Part shown: positions 2,145 through 63,718 of the stretch, in pieces
How the letters are laid out: the number at the start of each line of letters is the position of its first letter
Position numbering within the stretch: the stretch's first letter is position 1
Origin: a virus
IMG/VR virus record: IMGVR_UViG_3300033182_000991
Location: 48,920 to 112,919 of that record
Reading direction: 5' to 3' (one strand)
DNA: 64,000 nt
Position numbers and translations under genes: made by a program
Notes under the pieces: model-generated
What the model was told of the DNA's origin: nothing
What the model saw: the letters and a program-made list of their open reading frames with translations, nothing else
The model's database searches: none

Positions 2145-2780
2145 ATGAACGCAAGTAAAAAATGTAATTTAATATACTGGGGGACTGCGGGATGTGGTTC
2201 TCGTAGTATCGGTAGTTTCATTCAAAGAGTTGGATGTGACGATTTTAAGAACACCGTGTACGACCAACTCATTGCAGTGGAATGTTCCCATACTCATAAC
2301 GTAGGAATACCTGAAGGTTATGAAGATTGTGATATCGTTGCCGTGGTTAGAAACCCATATTCATTATTTGTGAGTAGGTGGTTTGACGAGTCCAATGACT
2401 TTGAATACGAAGAAGTAAGAAATGGATTCAAAGATTTTGTGTATAATAATCCGTTGTGGGATTACTTTGGACAAGGTGATTTCTTTTTCCTACATCAATG
2501 GAAAGAGATTGGTAGGTTTCCCAACCATATTATAAGGATGGAACATATGGAAGAAGACTTAAATAAGGTCAAAGTCCTTAGAGATATGGAAAAGTTTGAT
2601 GAAAGTATCGAAACATATGTCACGCAAAATATATTCAAGAACGGTTCTAAGAACGACAGTTACATCGGTGAACATCAGGATTATAAGATTTATTGGACAG
2701 AAGATATTGCAGACTTCTTTTATGAGAAGATGGAGGAATATTTCACCACCTTCAATTATGATAGAGATTCTTGGAAGTAA
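2145..2780 (+). CDS. sulfotransferase family 2-like protein
   Basis: GTAGCGSRSI N-terminal loop, VVRNPY..VS, IRME.MEEDL, C-terminal F.Y pattern. Confidence 0.65.
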   Translation: MNASKKCNLIYWGTAGCGSRSIGSFIQRVGCDDFKNTVYDQLIAVECSHTHNVGIPEGYEDCDIVAVVRNPYSLFVSRWFDESNDFEYEEVRNGFKDFVYNNPLWDYFGQGDFFFLHQWKEIGRFPNHIIRMEHMEEDLNKVKVLRDMEKFDESIETYVTQNIFKNGSKNDSYIGEHQDYKIYWTEDIADFFYEKMEEYFTTFNYDRDSWK

Positions 2781-2805
2781 GAGTATTTATAGTAAACGAT
2801 AATGT

Positions 2806-4401
2806 ATGAGTCTTAGTCAGATATTACTTGAGGGGAGAAAAGATGATTTCTTAAATAAGTTTAGGGATAAGTTTACTGGTGAAGAGTTGAAAGATATCTT
2901 CATGTTGTCTCGTGATTTGGCATCCAACCATAAGTTCTTAATGTTCTTAGGTAAGGTGTTGGAAACAGGTAAGGTAGATATCAATAAGACCAGAGACCTT
3001 ATTCAGAACTTCGTGAAATACCAAAAGGTATTACCAACGAAAGACATTTACTTATTTGATAGTCTTCAATCTATTCAAGATGAGATTGACCAACACGAAA
3101 ACAAAGTCAGAAGGCAGGTTAAGGAGTTGGAAGGTGCCGACCAAGTATATGAAGACGACAGGTTCGTTATTGTAACACCAAAGAATCACAAAACAAGTTG
3201 TTATTATGGTGCTGGTACCAAATGGTGTACTGCGTCTATGGATGGTTCTTCACACTTTGACCGTTACAATCAAGACGGTAAGTTGTTCTACATCATTGAT
3301 AAGAAAGCCAAATCTCAGGACCGTTTTTACAAAGTTGCATTACTAAACAAATATGATGGTAACCAAACATTCTATGATGCTCCTGATAAAGCCTTCAATG
3401 AAGGTTGGATTTTAGGTTCAGAACAATGGAACAAAATGAATGGTGCTATTCAAGACTACATTCAAAGTAAATTCAAAAGAGAGATTGATATTTTCAAAGA
3501 TAAGGAAGCGGCACGTCTTGAGATGGAAAGAATCCGTAGAGAACAACAGGCTGAGAGAACAAGACAAAAACTACAAACTCAAAGAGAACGTAAAGAAAAT
3601 GACGAATGGAATCTCAATAACAATCCTGATGAAATGGGTATTCATGCTAATGCCGTATTCAACATACTTGATGATTTGGGTGTTGAAGTGGGTGAAGGTG
3701 AAAGTGTTTATAACTTAGTACCAGCGGACCACGGTCATATGGGTCTAACAACTTTTGAATGGTTGGGTGAAGACGAGCAAGGAAGAGAGATTGCGGTAGG
3801 TGATTGGGACCAAGTGTGGGAAGCGGCAAAAGATTACTACCAAAACGTTTGGGATGAAATGGGTATTGAAGGTTGGAATAGAGACTTCATTGAATCACAC
3901 TTAGATACTGATAAGGTTGAGGATTACTTTGAAGAGATATATGAGTCAATGATTGATGACGACCCACAGTCTTATTTTGACGAAGATGAATTACCTTTAT
4001 CTGAAGAACAACAACAAAAGGTTGAGAAACTTAGAGAAGAGATTGAAGAGTTGAATGATATTGTCAATTACTCTGAAGATGAAGATGAGATTGGTTTTGC
4101 CGAAGAAAGAATCCAAGAGATTGAATCAGAGATAGAAGACGAAGAAAACAATCCTGAAGGTGAACCTACAGTAGGTCAGATAGAGGACAAAGTTCAAGAT
4201 ATGTTGTATGATGTAAAACAGAACCCTCTTGACTACTTGAATGACTATGGATTTGACATTGGTGGTTTTGTTGATGTTGACGAGCTCATTGAAGATTCCC
4301 TTAATTACGACGGTGTTGGACCTGCATTATCATCTTATGATGGTGAGGTATATGAATCACTTATAAATGGTGAGTGGTATCACGTAGTTATTGTTGAATA
4401 A
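2806..4401 (+). CDS. large hypothetical protein with SCYYG.GTKWC domain and acidic C-terminus (late, likely virion-associated)
   Basis: 531-aa ORF; GTATTTATAG at ~2783; starts MSLSQILLEG. Confidence 0.75.
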   Translation: MSLSQILLEGRKDDFLNKFRDKFTGEELKDIFMLSRDLASNHKFLMFLGKVLETGKVDINKTRDLIQNFVKYQKVLPTKDIYLFDSLQSIQDEIDQHENKVRRQVKELEGADQVYEDDRFVIVTPKNHKTSCYYGAGTKWCTASMDGSSHFDRYNQDGKLFYIIDKKAKSQDRFYKVALLNKYDGNQTFYDAPDKAFNEGWILGSEQWNKMNGAIQDYIQSKFKREIDIFKDKEAARLEMERIRREQQAERTRQKLQTQRERKENDEWNLNNNPDEMGIHANAVFNILDDLGVEVGEGESVYNLVPADHGHMGLTTFEWLGEDEQGREIAVGDWDQVWEAAKDYYQNVWDEMGIEGWNRDFIESHLDTDKVEDYFEEIYESMIDDDPQSYFDEDELPLSEEQQQKVEKLREEIEELNDIVNYSEDEDEIGFAEERIQEIESEIEDEENNPEGEPTVGQIEDKVQDMLYDVKQNPLDYLNDYGFDIGGFVDVDELIEDSLNYDGVGPALSSYDGEVYESLINGEWYHVVIVE

Positions 4402-11797: not shown

Positions 11798-12611
11798 TGG
11801 TCATGTTTATGGACCGACTTTTGTATTATCTCTTCGGAGATTATCCTTTCCAAAGGAGTTGGACATAGACAGACACGGCGGTTTAGCGTCGTTAGATAAC
11901 CCCTGTGAGGGGACTAAAGGGATTGAAGCGGGATTAGTACACCGTGGATATTCGCAGTCGTGAGGCTGACAACTAAACAAAGTGGCTACGGCTGATTCCC
12001 CGAGGGCAACTGCTGGGGGGAAGAGGTTACTCTGAGTCCGTGGAATATCAGAGTTGAGATGGTGACATCAACAGGAAAAGCTACAGGTGACGGTTCGACA
12101 CACTCTGCAAGGTGTCGTAGGGCTGGGTACCAGTCTGATGGGTTTCCGAGACGTTAAAGTCTACGAAGTCCTGACTGACCGTAAGTTTGCAGACTTACAG
12201 AGAGGTGTGAAGCATTCTGTTCTCCAAAGGAACGGACCTTCTCCCGAAGCACATCTTTCCTTCTTCCACAATGCTAATTTAATTAATCAATTAAATACGA
12301 GCAAGAGTCTTCGGGCGTTGACAACGAAAGGTGTCTAAAACTCCGAGTGTAAACTAACGGAGTCATTGATAGACCGCAAGTCTTTCAATGTCAATTACAA
12401 AAGACCTGTTGGGACGGCCATCCCTTCATGAACTCGCAAGGTTCAACAGAGTTAAGTAGTAGTTGAGTAGTTGTTAACGAATACGAGTGGTTAACGTAAG
12501 TAACCGACACTGACTTGATACGATAGGCAACTATTGTGGACAATGTGAGCAACCGACTATTAGGGTACACTCACGAAAGACAGGTCACATAAACGTGTAG
12601 TCTCAGCGTTC
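11798..12611 (+). ncRNA. large ornate structured RNA (GOLLD/ROOL class)
   Basis: GC-enriched ~810 nt without a credible ORF. GNRA/UUCG hairpins: atctc-ttcg-gagat, cccct-gtga-gggg, cagtc-gtga-ggctg, gacc-gcaa-gtc, gaactc-gcaa-ggttc, atag-gcaa-ctat. Long-range gacctgt/acaggtc pairing. Own promoter and terminator. Confidence 0.8.
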
Positions 12612-48691: not shown

Positions 48692-50364
48692 TATAATAAA
48701 ATCTTCGTTCCTGTTGAAAGTTGCCAGTTCAGCACATCACCCTTATATTGGTATACACCTGCGAAAGATATACTCCACTTAAAGGTATCCGTTATTTTTA
48801 TGTCGTTGTTAATAAGAGGGATAAATAATAGACCACTCTTATACCATTGACCTTCGTAATAGAATATATAGGGTGAATATACACCCAATAACATTACATT
48901 AGAAGAAAGATAACGCCCACCTTGGAAGTTTGTAAAGCCTCCACCAATTATGGACCAGTTGGAGAATTGACCTTTACCTAAATAACCATATGTGTAGTTG
49001 GTACCACCCATTATGGTTATTTTATTAATTTTTACGGCATCCATTACAGATGTTGTATTGAAAATATCTGAACTAAAGTTAGACATAGTTGCATTTGAGA
49101 ATATGAACATATTTCTTTCAGTCTTAAATGAACCATAAAGTGTTAGGTTACCTATATTTTCACCTGTTTGATAATTGAAGTTAGCTCCTTTGATAAATGT
49201 TCTTTTAGTATTAAGGTGTGTTAAGGACGCATTGAACTTAAAATTATCCACACCCGTGTCTCTTGGGTTTGATGAGTTACGAATAACTACGAAGTCACCT
49301 GCACCGATAAGTGCTCCTCTACCTACTTTTTCTTGTTTTGATTTTTTGCGGCCTCCGCCTCCACCTGAACCACCATCACTTCCTGATTCGGATTCACCAC
49401 CTGATGCGGTTGTTGTTGTTTGGTCACCCATACCACCCATATCGGAATCTGACGATGTGTTACCACCACCATTATCTGCCGAGATACCACTACCATCACC
49501 AGTTCCTACGGAGGGTTCACCACTACCTGAAGAACTACCCGTGTTACCACCTCCTCCTGAAGATGAACCTCCTGTGTTTCCACCACCGGTACTACCTCCG
49601 CCTGTGTCTCCACCTGTGGATGCCCCACCATTGCCTGATGAACCTGAACCACCTGTATTTCCACCCGATGAAGACCCACTACCTGTGGATGTTGAACCAC
49701 CATTTGAGTTACCCGAACCTGTTGATGTTCCTGACCCTGTAGAACCACCTGTAAACGTCCCTGAACCACTATCACCACTTGTTGATGTGTTACCACCTGA
49801 AGAGGAAGAAGACCCCGTAGAATTATTCCCCGAACTTGAAGATGAATTACTACCACTATCTGTTGACTCTTCATCTCCACTGTTATTATTTGATGAAGAG
49901 CTTCCACCACCGTCACCCGATGATGTTGAACCACCACCTAACGATGATGATATACCACCTGCGGTGTTAGCAGCACCTGAAGTGGAGTTGGCTAATCCTG
50001 CAGCCATTTGAACGATACCTGTGATATTGGCAACGTTCCCTGCAGTTGTTGAACCCATAATTGTATTGAAGTCGTTAGTCACATCACCACCTAACCCAGC
50101 ACAAGGGTCAGTCCCTGGTGGGAATTGTGAGTTGATAGATGCTACCCATTGGTCGTATGCACCTGCCTGTAACTGAGCATAGGTAAATGTTTGGTATTGA
50201 CCACCATAAAACATTGTAACAGTTCCTGAGGTTGTTGGGACTTGAATGGTGGTTTGAACACCAGTACAAGGGTCAATATATGTATAAGGGACGGTCTGAC
50301 CTTTTGAGGTCAAAACCATCCCAAACATGAAAAATAAGAATAATATTAATTTTTTACCACCCAT
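48691..50364 (-). CDS. secreted Gly/Ser/Thr-rich-stalk protein with C-terminal beta-barrel
   Basis: Signal peptide, YIDPCTG, ~200-aa G/S/T tract, alternating-strand C-terminus. Confidence 0.75.
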   Translation of the reverse strand: MGGKKLILFLFFMFGMVLTSKGQTVPYTYIDPCTGVQTTIQVPTTSGTVTMFYGGQYQTFTYAQLQAGAYDQWVASINSQFPPGTDPCAGLGGDVTNDFNTIMGSTTAGNVANITGIVQMAAGLANSTSGAANTAGGISSSLGGGSTSSGDGGGSSSSNNNSGDEESTDSGSNSSSSSGNNSTGSSSSSGGNTSTSGDSGSGTFTGGSTGSGTSTGSGNSNGGSTSTGSGSSSGGNTGGSGSSGNGGASTGGDTGGGSTGGGNTGGSSSGGGGNTGSSSGSGEPSVGTGDGSGISADNGGGNTSSDSDMGGMGDQTTTTASGGESESGSDGGSGGGGGRKKSKQEKVGRGALIGAGDFVVIRNSSNPRDTGVDNFKFNASLTHLNTKRTFIKGANFNYQTGENIGNLTLYGSFKTERNMFIFSNATMSNFSSDIFNTTSVMDAVKINKITIMGGTNYTYGYLGKGQFSNWSIIGGGFTNFQGGRYLSSNVMLLGVYSPYIFYYEGQWYKSGLLFIPLINNDIKITDTFKWSISFAGVYQYKGDVLNWQLSTGTKILL

Positions 50365-59965: not shown

Positions 59966-60060
59966 TGGTGTAGACGGGATTCGAACCACGTGGCACGGTC
60001 GGTTTCAATGACCTGCTCTACCATGGGAAGAATAACATCTTCCACCTGAGCTACTACACC
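59966..60060 (-). tRNA. aberrant tRNA-Phe(GAA)-like with extra hairpin in the D-loop
   Basis: Acceptor GGTGTAG/CTACACC; insert GGAAGA-TGTTAT-TCTTCC; loop TTGAAAC. Confidence 0.65.
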
Positions 60061-60447: not shown

Positions 60448-61145
60448 CATACCAACTACGACTTTCATCGCCATCATAAGATGTTTGTGGTCTGGACTTT
60501 CTCTTAACCCTCGTCTTTACGTTAGGGTTCCTCCCGTCAAGTCTCTACACGTCCCTAAATGTTTTTACCACGATAGGTTGTGGTCTGAGAATGACAATTA
60601 GGACAAATGATTCTTAAGTTTTCTTCTCTATGGTCGTTTCTTATACCATTGATATGGTCTAATTCAAAACTTAACTTTTCACCATTCCAATCTTTAATAC
60701 CACATACTTCACATTTTTTCTCTTTAATACCTTCGTTCAACAAACGAATTCTGAGTTTATTAGTTTGGTAATGTGGATGTTTACCTTCTAAAATCTCATT
60801 TGTTGGGATTTTAGACTTTGGAGAAGGTTTATTAGTTCCTCGGGCACCTTGATTTGGTTTATACACATTTAACTTTTTAGCCTTTCTTATGAAAGTGTTA
60901 TAATGTAATCCAACTCTTGTCGCCGCACGAGCCATAGTTACTTCTTCTTCACATGCCCTGATTATATCCTCATCACTGATGTTTATCTTTTTCATTACTG
61001 TCTTTTTTAATAAATATAGACATAACGGAAAAAATAACAATAGTGTCTACCATTTAGGTTTCGCTCGGGATTGCCATTTAACAGGTTTCCCCGAATTTGA
61101 GAGGTTTTACATTAAAGGTTTCCCTTTATGCACTCAATTTAATCT
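60448..61145 (-). mobile_element. group I intron (trnL-UAA type) with HNH ORF in the P6 extension
   Basis: Core elements AAATTCGGGAAACC (P), GGCAATCCCGAGC (Q), GTAGAGACTTGACGGG (R), AAGAGAAAGTCC (S); terminal G; insertion after U34. Confidence 0.92.
60555..60995 (-). CDS. intron-encoded HNH homing endonuclease
   Basis: CEVCG, LDHING...D.REENLRIICPNCH; N-terminal HTH-like segment. Confidence 0.92.
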   Translation of the reverse strand: MKKINISDEDIIRACEEEVTMARAATRVGLHYNTFIRKAKKLNVYKPNQGARGTNKPSPKSKIPTNEILEGKHPHYQTNKLRIRLLNEGIKEKKCEVCGIKDWNGEKLSFELDHINGIRNDHREENLRIICPNCHSQTTTYRGKNI

Positions 61146-62239: not shown

Positions 62240-62245
62240 ATTTTG

Positions 62246-62318
62246 TGACTCCTCGGAGGTTCGAACTCCGGACCCATACATTAAAAGTGTATTGCTCTAC
62301 CAGCTGAGCTAAGAAGTC
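62246..62318 (-). tRNA. tRNA-Lys(TTT)
   Basis: Loop CTTTTAA. Confidence 0.95.
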
Positions 62319-62323
62319 AATCC

Positions 62324-63162
62324 ATTGACAATAGTAACCAGGATTCTGTTTTAATCTGTCATTCATCTAAGCCCCTACCTTACCCGACCAGCTCACCGTC
62401 ATAGGTTATTTTGGGTTGCATCCTCGGTGGTCCAAACGATTGTGAATGCGGTGCGTTCGTAATCTCCCACCTTAAGCAGTGATGTCCTGAGTTTCCTCCC
62501 TGTTCAACACATCATAACCGTTATATTCCAAAACATTTATACATAATTGAATAAATTCATCAACAGTCATATCACTCTTTGCGTAGTTAACGTTAGATTT
62601 TAAAAATCCTAAGTTTTCTAAGGAGTTATCACCCCCTTTGGATTTGGGTAATATATGGTCTAATGAATAATCTTTACTATCAGTTAAATCAATTTTTTCA
62701 CCTGTAAGATAGCAAATCGGTTCAGACCCAAACTTTTCATACACTTCTTGTATTGTGAATGAATGTGTTTTTTTTCCTACCCTACTATTTTTTTCAGACC
62801 TACCTTTAAACCCACCGAGTTTCAATGATAATATTCTGTTAGGAGACATTTCATCTCTCGGTATGTAGTTTTGTTTTACTTTAGGTTTTTTTTCTTTTTT
62901 TGGTTTTGGTTTAGAATTAATGATATTCCATACCTGACCCACACTGTAGTTTACTTCTTTTGAAATCTCACGATAACTGTAACCACATTCGTGAAGTAAT
63001 TTAATCTGACTTTTGACCTTATTTTTCATAATATCCTTTTAATATAAATATCATCACGTTCAGTTTTTTATATGTTTTTCACAAAAAACAAACAATAAAA
63101 TTGAACGTTCAGGTGCACTGAACAGTTTGATATGTTGAACACAGCGACAGAACTTTGTCAAT
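62324..63162 (-). ncRNA. rnpB: RNase P RNA (minimal), interrupted in P3 by an HNH gene
   Basis: CR-I GAGGAAACTCAGGAC pairs with CR-V AACAGAATCCTGGTTA (P4); AGATGAATGAC; P1 ATTGACAA/TTGTCAAT; P2 TCTGTC/GACAGA; P3 TGTTCAACATATC/GATGTGTTGAACA. Confidence 0.85.
62472..63029 (-). CDS. HNH endonuclease with N-terminal HTH, embedded in RNase P RNA
   Basis: GYSYREIS HTH; CYLTG, SLDHILPKSKGGDNSLENL....VN.AK; TATTTATA upstream. Confidence 0.9.
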   Translation of the reverse strand: MKNKVKSQIKLLHECGYSYREISKEVNYSVGQVWNIINSKPKPKKEKKPKVKQNYIPRDEMSPNRILSLKLGGFKGRSEKNSRVGKKTHSFTIQEVYEKFGSEPICYLTGEKIDLTDSKDYSLDHILPKSKGGDNSLENLGFLKSNVNYAKSDMTVDEFIQLCINVLEYNGYDVLNREETQDITA

Positions 63163-63718
63163 CTTCTTTTTTCTTTGGTGCAAATTTACTATTTGCCATC
63201 AAATCGTCCCAATCTTTATACCCTTGTTCTTGAGCATAAATGTCGTTCTTCTTTCTCTGAAATGCTTTGACATTTTCAGGGTCTCTCATTTCTTCAACGG
63301 TTTCAAAACCGAGTGACTTTGCACATTCAGTTTCACACCACTGATGAGAACCGATATTGATGTTAATAGGTAGGTCGGTATTGAGAGATTCAATGAAGTC
63401 TTCAAACTGATTTGCCGCAATAAATGGCATTGTGTAAGTACCTTCCTCAACCTGGTAACCTGATTCATCTTCACTGTCAAATACCTCAATCCTACCCATT
63501 CGGTATTTTTCTCCCATTAAAGAGAAAACACCATAACCAACGGTTGAATAACTGTAACGTCCTGGGTCACTGACACCATGAACATCTACACACCCTGGGT
63601 TCCTTTCCATCCATAGGGCGAGTTGTTCAACCAGTTGTTCATCCGTGAGTTCCTGACCCTCGGCTCTCCTACGGATGTTTTGGAGATACCATAACAGGTC
63701 TTTTCTATTTATTTTCAT
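63158..63718 (-). CDS. hypothetical protein
   Basis: 186-aa ORF; stop codon overlaps the RNase P P1 5' strand. Confidence 0.75.
   Translation of the reverse strand: MKINRKDLLWYLQNIRRRAEGQELTDEQLVEQLALWMERNPGCVDVHGVSDPGRYSYSTVGYGVFSLMGEKYRMGRIEVFDSEDESGYQVEEGTYTMPFIAANQFEDFIESLNTDLPININIGSHQWCETECAKSLGFETVEEMRDPENVKAFQRKKNDIYAQEQGYKDWDDLMANSKFAPKKKED

Follow-up and report, generated by a model that had tools for sequence, protein, structure and literature searches.

Ribonuclease P (RNase P) RNA is the universal ribozyme that trims new tRNAs, and we describe here a phage-borne gene for an RNA of this type that is interrupted by a protein-coding gene. It lies in a 64,000-nucleotide (nt) stretch of an IMG/VR virus record (IMGVR_UViG_3300033182_000991, positions 48,920 to 112,919), which we call the window and in whose numbering all coordinates without a locus prefix are given. 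The RNase P-type RNA gene occupies 63162-62324 on the minus strand, is 839 nt long with its insert, and heads a run of tRNA genes. Its interruption is a 643-nt block between helix P2 and conserved region I (CR-I), closed by a 14-bp helix and containing an intact helix-turn-helix (HTH)-HNH endonuclease gene. We consider it likely that the locus represents a phage miniature RNase P RNA gene carrying an intron-less HTH-HNH homing gene within an expanded P3, with the two parts of the ribozyme brought together through the P3 helix. The parts of the locus are listed below from the 5′ end of the RNA, all on the minus strand (-).

63153-63162 (-): P1 5′ strand, ATTGACAAAG, pairing with 62333-62324 and overlapping the TGA stop codon of the upstream open reading frame (ORF) at 63158-63718
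63146-63152 (-): P2 5′ strand, TTCTGTC (TCTGTC at 63151-63146), pairing with GACAGA(A) at 62360-62354
63128-63141 (-): P3 5′ arm, TGTTCAACATATCA, an inverted repeat with 62501-62514, its first 8-9 nt common to long-P3 alleles
63106-63124 (-): inner P3 hairpin, TGTTCAG-TGCAC-CTGAACG, followed by a terminator-like U-rich run and homologous to the inner hairpin of the long P3
63030-63105 (-): 5′ untranslated region of the HNH gene, with the motif ATATTTATA at 63051-63043 and an AAAGGA ribosome-binding site
62472-63029 (-): HTH-HNH endonuclease ORF, 185 amino acids (Pfam HNH_4, PHROG HNH endonuclease)
62501-62514 (-): P3 3′ arm, TGATGTGTTGAACA, inside the ORF as codons Y-D-V-L-N
62484-62498 (-): CR-I and P4 5′ strand, GAGGAAACTCAGGAC, aligning with GAGGAAAgUCC of the Rfam RNase P models and invariant in the family
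62324-62483 (-): rest of the ribozyme, with P5, a stub hairpin in place of the specificity domain (S-domain), J5/15 GCAA, P15 to a P16-like arm with GGUA, AGAUGAAUG, the P2 3′ strand, CR-V and the P1 3′ strand
62335-62350 (-): CR-V and P4 3′ strand, AACAGAATCCTGGTTA
62324-62333 (-): P1 3′ strand
62245-62318 (-): tRNA-Lys(UUU), the first of six consecutive tRNAs, 5 nt past the end of the P1 3′ strand

The 3′ part of the gene contains every RNase P hallmark that a first-pass annotation, made from the sequence alone, had recognized there, namely CR-I, GATGCAA, AGATGAATGAC, CR-V and a compensated P4. The missing 5′ part, which the same annotation had placed about 615 nt upstream, is found at 63162-63128 (-) and consists of P1, P2 and the 5′ strand of P3, with GCTG as a spacer between the TCTGTC of P2 and the P3 5′ arm. 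Past the end of the HNH ORF, the elements GATGCAA, the GGUA-bearing arm, AGATGAATGACAGA, AACAGAATCCTGGTTA and CTATTGTCAAT follow one another in this order, up to the end at 62324. P4 is formed by AACuCAGG and CCUGGUU with a bulged U, which is compensated relative to the bacterial AAGuCCGG/CCGGCUU, and the pairing of GAGGAAACUCAGG with CCUGGUU constitutes the P4 pseudoknot of CR-I and CR-V. The absence of P18 and the strong reduction of the S-domain, both already noticed in the first pass, can be expressed relative to the bacterial model: 1 nt stands in place of the 23 model positions of P18, and 16-90 nt, forming a single hairpin, in place of about 110 model positions of the S-domain (P7-P14, CR-II and CR-III). 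These comparisons support a predicted catalytic domain that is complete except for P18, next to an S-domain reduced to a stub.

Rfam searches at gathering thresholds yielded no match at the locus. When hits were instead considered by E-value, 62323-62523 matched RNaseP_arch (32 bits, E = 2.8e-7), in an alignment that covers CR-I, GCAA, GGUA, UAGAUGAAUG and ACAGAA..UUAC and forces P1 and P2 onto ORF sequence. Related loci gave further matches of this kind: L047:167-353 aligned end-to-end with RNaseP_bact_a (45 bits, E = 3e-11), the insert-free long-P3 allele L153:239-495, whose RNA body is 97% identical to that of the window, reached 44 bits (E = 1e-10), and the distant insert-free member L109 reached 66.6 bits (E = 1.5e-16), with Rfam E-values ranging from 1e-7 to 1e-16 overall and from 1e-10 to 1e-16 for the related contigs. 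The RNA of L047 occupies the same place as that of the window, overlaps the same stop codon, and ends 4 nt before tRNA-Lys. Trained on seven insert-free alleles and not on the window, a covariance model gave the 3′ part of the window RNA a score of 138.8 bits (E = 2.6e-29). Judged by its sequence, the RNA of this locus is a phage-encoded miniature RNase P-type RNA, derived from bacterial type A and presumably catalytic.

Relatives of the upstream ORF are found in viral contigs (46 in total), and a nhmmer search with the two window pieces joined as query identified contiguous alleles of the RNA in L047, L021/L022 and L015, to which a motif scan added L049, L051, L053 and L054. Uninterrupted alleles in related phages, a check suggested by the first-pass annotation, therefore exist in nature (L047, L153 and others). 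An 18-mer of CR-I is present in at least 120 metagenome contigs and 16 genome contigs, and the RNA itself in at least 91 (nhmmer); among the genome contigs, it was detected in 2 of the 16 only (L183 and L190, short contigs binned into metagenome-assembled genomes), the others being chance 18-mers. A blastn comparison of the locus to 50,697 phage records returned tRNA matches only.

We evaluated covariation across 95 copies aligned to the model (77 distinct), on which an RNase P-style structure was imposed, including the P4 pseudoknot that is absent from the covariance model itself. Pairing was observed in 95.1% of cells of the 95 aligned copies, with changes on both sides at 51 of the 68 pairs, and the covariation score was 0.277, compared to 0.03-0.06 when the 3′ partners were slid by 1-3 columns. 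Compensatory changes affected all 11 pairs of P1, and both-side changes were found at 6 of 7 pairs in P2, 3 of 3 in P15 and 7 of 7 in the P16-like arm. P4 and P5 are invariant, and the seven P4 pairs are formed in 99-100% of the 77 distinct copies. The RNA also ends 3-6 nt before a tRNA in every locus examined, including L047, L015, L054 and L049, and in the window the processing site at the 5′ end of tRNA-Lys would define the 3′ end of the ribozyme. Taken together, this covariation and the constant tRNA adjacency show that this RNase P-type RNA is genuine, conserved and carried by phages. Additional hairpins, 30-45 nt long, were also seen between the P2 3′ strand and CR-V (L049:11060-11098, L123, L082, L140 and L165) and inside the P15-16 arm (L181:2487-2530, L183 and L113), and because these lie at two other places of the molecule, the ribozyme accepts insertions at several peripheral sites.

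P3 occurs in three states among the matches listed: a mini hairpin of 3 bp, CUC-UACG-GAG (about 60 copies, including L047), a 57-nt long P3 (13-14 copies), and the HNH form (the window, L165 and L181). Distant members of the family have other simple hairpins at this position. The long P3 comprises a 9-bp outer stem (UGUUCAAUA / UGUUGAACA), an internal loop, and an inner hairpin, GUGUUCA-N7-UGAACAC, which displays compensatory changes of its own. Since the first 45 nt and the last 15 nt of the window insert are homologous to this long P3, the HNH gene can be placed inside it, between the inner hairpin and the 3′ arm. This refines the first-pass annotation, which had described a 13-bp P3 with the gene in its loop: the helix stands, with arms of 14 nt that are 613 nt apart and 93% complementary, their sole mismatch being a G-U pair in the RNA, whereas the notion of a plain P3 that gained a loop does not, as the gene sits in the 57-nt long P3 while most relatives have the mini P3. 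An inverted repeat like this is by itself unexceptional in the AT-rich window, where 50 such pairs occur, and the case for the locus therefore rests on comparative data.

The P3 helix is present in both the minimum free energy (MFE) and the centroid folds of the 839-nt RNA, in which P1 and P2 are kept too, and the helix closing the insert comprises 14 bp plus an extension. The outer P3 stem is 14 bp in HNH alleles versus 9 bp in long-P3 alleles, and the extra stem pairs are formed with codons of a conserved Y-D-V near the end of the HNH protein. We estimate the chance of six extra in-register pairs at about 0.003, and the longer P3 stem looks like the outcome of selection for a stronger clamp round the large loop.

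The block carrying the HNH gene is mobile among these RNAs. From arm to arm, its 643 nt are 96.7-97.4% identical among the window, L165 and L181, whereas the variable RNA bodies of the same three alleles are only 44-64% identical. Their S-domain hairpins differ, as do their extra hairpins (in J2/4 or in the P15-16 arm), and the gene upstream of L165 is not the one found in the window. In a tree of the RNA bodies, the HNH alleles do not form one clade and require three changes, at least two of which are forced by well-supported branches, and each HNH allele has a long-P3 allele among its nearest neighbours. The locus thus shows a presence/absence polymorphism at one precise site, with an element that is more conserved than its flanks and an insertion site that adjoins the least variable DNA of its target. 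An intron-less homing endonuclease specialized on the P3 site, which would presumably cleave there, would be expected to leave such a pattern, and the homing-endonuclease reading put forward in the first pass is strengthened by the occurrence of the block, about 97% identical, at one site in three RNA backgrounds. At the DNA level, the gene would have spread during co-infection, when the HNH protein most likely cuts HNH-free ribozyme alleles and repair would then copy the HNH gene in, P3 arms included.

The HNH gene itself is intact. Its product, predicted in the first pass as an HTH-HNH protein encoded in the P3 loop, matches Pfam HNH_4 (1.5e-9) with a weak HTH_23 match, as well as a PHROG HNH endonuclease (1.6e-17). 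The ORF is open in all three copies, and codon changes between them are 10-14 synonymous versus 1-4 conservative non-synonymous, from which the ORF is judged to be under purifying selection. As had been noted, its last codons are read through P3 and P4: the ORF ends at 62472, inside the ribozyme, and its final 14 codons correspond to the P3 3′ arm TGATGTGTTGAACA, GG and GAGGAAACTCAGGACATCACTGCTTAA (CR-I/P4 5′ strand and P5). The window protein accordingly ends, within the ribozyme, in ...VLNREETQDITA before its stop codon, whereas homologues at 38-68% identity end in ..VLEYNGYxVxK. A protein cluster at 90% identity includes 9 variants from at least 36 contigs (JGI, ENA and Logan), all 9 of which read ..LN(R/K)EET.. 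through CR-I. One of these, P0125, retains the family-native ending ..NVSK and then continues with ILNREETQDITA, which shows how the reading frame became fused to the P3 arm. Variants P0122, P0123 and P0127 (14 contigs) end in ..LN(R/K)EETSK rather than ..REETQDITA, and from this ending the sequence past GAGGAAACT in these three must differ from the invariant CR-I; a DNA pattern for the ..REETSK variant had no match in viral contigs. More distant HNH relatives (L056-L061) are free-standing in the ordinary way, with protein genes around them and no tRNAs nearby, and searches with the close HNH relatives P0003 and P0002 gave no match in viral contigs.

The HNH gene may also have expression signals of its own. 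The 9-mer ATATTTATA occurs 14 times in the window versus 2.15 expected, and 10 of the 14 occurrences lie 4-25 nt upstream of an ORF start (sites include 8485, 14149, 35160, 38272, 57385 and 63043). Where the first-pass annotation had assigned the HNH gene its own ATATTTATA promoter, the enrichment of the motif and its placement at ORF starts hold up, and the promoter itself is plausible; the motif is probably a phage promoter element that gives very short leaders. The inner hairpin and its U-run suggest a candidate terminator, although sites receiving this terminator-like call are as numerous as expected from shuffled sequence. Because ATATTTATA is enriched upstream of ORF starts, separate transcripts for the 5′ piece and for the HNH-plus-3′ piece are possible.

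At the RNA level, the 14-bp P3 helix would unite the two ribozyme parts, and the core could form from a single RNA of 839 nt with a loop of 613 nt, or from two separate RNAs. With two RNAs, the 5′ piece would end near the inner hairpin and U-run and pair via P1, P2 and P3 with a 3′ piece starting as the HNH mRNA; a cofold of the two pieces predicts 37 intermolecular pairs with a ddG of -20.7 kcal/mol. We infer that the interrupted RNA, in one of these forms, cleaves pre-tRNAs, probably with the RnpA protein of the host. That the active form is a natural two-piece RNase P ribozyme, composed of a short 5′ RNA (P1, P2 and the P3 5′ arm) and a transcript from the HNH promoter that is mRNA first and ribozyme remainder after, is a proposal we advance only tentatively. 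If true, nuclease translation and core folding would be mutually exclusive on each molecule, and the expression of a selfish gene would be coupled to tRNA processing.

Function of the interrupted ribozyme is favoured by the state of its core. Of the 74 columns whose conservation among uninterrupted alleles is 95% or higher, the window allele deviates at 0, as does L181, while L165 deviates at 3; uninterrupted alleles themselves deviate at 0 to 6. We also count in favour of function that the interrupted form occurs in many samples, that its P3 clamp is strengthened, and that the two pieces are predicted to cofold. Importantly, however, several observations weigh against this reading. Every Rfam score is below gathering (44-45 bits versus 100 for RF00010, and 32-67 versus 84 for RF00373), because about 110 S-domain positions and P18 are missing. 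About 38 of the 46 phages sharing the upstream gene have no ribozyme gene nearby, and truncated remnants exist at L105:10844-10961 (-), L176:6574-6691 (+) and L172:765-900 (-), which retain the stretch from P1 as far as the S-domain stub and have lost the 3′ half, a tRNA or protein gene coming directly next; because of such remnants, the ribozyme gene must have been lost in some lineages, where it is dispensable. The insertion is recent, since the insert copies differ by only about 3%, and an intact core is for this reason weak evidence of subsequent selection, while the three changes of L165 at conserved positions are no more than some uninterrupted alleles have. To complete the HNH ORF, a ribosome must also unwind P3, P4 and P5 of the molecule it translates. 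Finally, no RnpA gene was found in the record (112.9 kb, about 38% complete), and the host RnpA protein would therefore be needed.

Several of these points would be equally at home in an account in which the HNH insertion inactivated the ribozyme gene, host RNase P handles the phage tRNAs, the P3 arms are leftovers of the long P3, and decay is under way. Sporadic occurrence of the ribozyme gene among related phages, the truncated remnants, the changes in L165 and the youth of the insertion, for which an intact core is expected either way, are all consistent with such inactivation. We nonetheless regard it as rather unlikely, given that P3 has 14 bp in HNH alleles versus 9 bp in ORF-less ones, gained through complementarity to coding sequence, that the interrupted form has 9 protein variants, found in several data sources on at least 36 contigs, that the window allele retains 74 of 74 conserved core positions, and that P1, P2 and P3 are kept in the MFE fold.

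A further possibility, which we consider improbable, is that the RNA derives from RNase P without being a pre-tRNA-cleaving enzyme, and acts instead as a decoy for host RnpA or, within the tRNA transcript, as a signal that is structural or serves processing, as was proposed for the inactive RNase P-like RNA of camelpox. The missing S-domain (with CR-II and CR-III) and P18, the Rfam scores below gathering, and the in vitro inactivity of the sole published viral RNase P-like RNA (camelpox, PMC3001073) would all agree with a non-enzymatic role. Against it, CR-I, the bulged U of P4, J5/15, the GGU in L15, CR-IV and CR-V are invariant across the family, and RNase P RNAs lacking the S-domain, whether natural (type T of Pyrobaculum) or engineered, are known to remain active.

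That we are dealing with an intron, whether self-splicing (of a degenerate or novel type) or excised by proteins, whose exons are ligated into a contiguous ribozyme, is very improbable: a U ends the 5′ flank and a G ends the insert, as at group I boundaries, group I introns are present in tRNA genes of this phage family (L135), and introns with large ORFs can escape cmscan, yet no intron family was detected by Rfam at E<=10 over 62250-63250 with the same tool that detects the introns of L135 (in agreement with the first-pass annotation, which saw no group I core in the insert), only about 100 nt of the insert are non-coding, without the ORF the element is a plain helix-loop-helix of 57 nt, which covaries internally and is too small to splice, and splicing would delete P3 altogether.

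The preferred reading, a miniature RNase P RNA gene with a homing gene in its expanded P3, can be related to several known systems. With bacterial type A RNase P RNA (rnpB, E. coli M1 RNA; RF00010), the phage RNA shares the order P1-P2-P3-P4-P5...P15...P2′-P4′-P1′, along with CR-I, CR-IV, CR-V, the P4 pseudoknot with its bulged U, J5/15 GCAA, and the GGU in L15. It differs in size (about 190-265 nt versus about 370 nt), in lacking P18, in having an S-domain of one hairpin, in its Rfam scores (44-67 bits, compared to gathering thresholds of 84-100), and, at this locus, in being interrupted by a protein gene. A natural RNA of comparable economy is the type T RNase P RNA of Pyrobaculum and other Thermoproteaceae (Rfam RNaseP-T), which at about 200 nt has kept the catalytic domain with almost no S-domain; it is archaeal and chromosomal and works with archaeal protein partners, whereas the motifs of the phage RNA are closest to bacterial type A.

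To our knowledge, homing endonuclease genes are thought to survive in essential genes only under the shelter of an intron or intein. The HNH gene described here lies directly in a ribozyme gene, with a helix as its only shelter and a reading frame that ends in the catalytic core, which would represent an intron-free route for selfish nucleases into structured-RNA genes. It also provides a natural test of the load that a peripheral helix of a ribozyme can carry, and of the assembly of split RNase P in vivo. Segments at helix tips of structured RNAs are known from the intervening sequences of 23S rRNA that are excised by RNase III, and an RNA of this kind may be used in fragments or with the extra segment left in place. 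Similarly, rRNA insertions in Candidate Phyla Radiation bacteria place an extra, sometimes ORF-bearing segment at a helix tip of an essential structured RNA (PMC11270868); in the window, however, the host RNA is an RNase P RNA rather than rRNA and the nuclease is HNH rather than LAGLIDADG, and while more than half of those rRNA insertions are group-I-like, the window insert is not.

The closest parallels for the endonuclease are free-standing homing endonucleases of T4-like phages, such as SegB (PMC2330249), located in the tRNA gene cluster of T4, and MobE, an HNH enzyme (PMC2790892), with which it shares the lack of an intron, its own expression signals, presence/absence polymorphism among related phages, apparent spread together with flanking DNA, and a location in a tRNA region. 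Seg and Mob genes are found between genes, whereas the window HNH gene lies within the gene for a structured RNA, has helix-forming arms on either side, and takes its final codons from the core of the ribozyme. Neither a phage RNase P RNA nor an HNH gene inside an RNase P RNA is described in the literature searched, the only viral precedent found being the camelpox RNase P-like RNA (PMC3001073). That RNA is likewise virus-encoded and resembles RNase P RNA, and differs in being a single case from a eukaryotic virus, reported to be inactive in vitro and unlinked to viral tRNA genes. Each kind of element is known, and it is the combination of an RNase P RNA with a free-standing homing endonuclease that is new. 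Phage annotation misses such RNase P genes because they fall below Rfam thresholds, and in this case the insert hides the gene further.

Other features were observed in the tRNA arrays of this phage and its relatives. In L135, two group I introns (Rfam Intron_gpI, 72 and 64 bits) are located in the tRNA array at 2478-2682 and 2777-2964 (+), just downstream of the RNase P RNA gene. ARAGORN predicted tRNA-like genes with odd anticodon loops, including one four-base "ctta" anticodon, at L021:4982-5054 (+), L053:12491-12563 and L005:8223-8301, again just downstream of the RNase P RNA. Within the tRNA array of the window, a second HNH endonuclease ORF is encoded at 60555-61040 (-) (Pfam HNH, 6.9e-6), unrelated in sequence to the one in P3, and a 95-nt tRNA at 59966-60060 (-) was called by Rfam (43.9 bits) without being reported by ARAGORN. 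The same phage record also encodes a full-length GOLLD RNA (Rfam RF02032, 292 bits, E = 1.5e-82) at window positions 12200-12609 (+).

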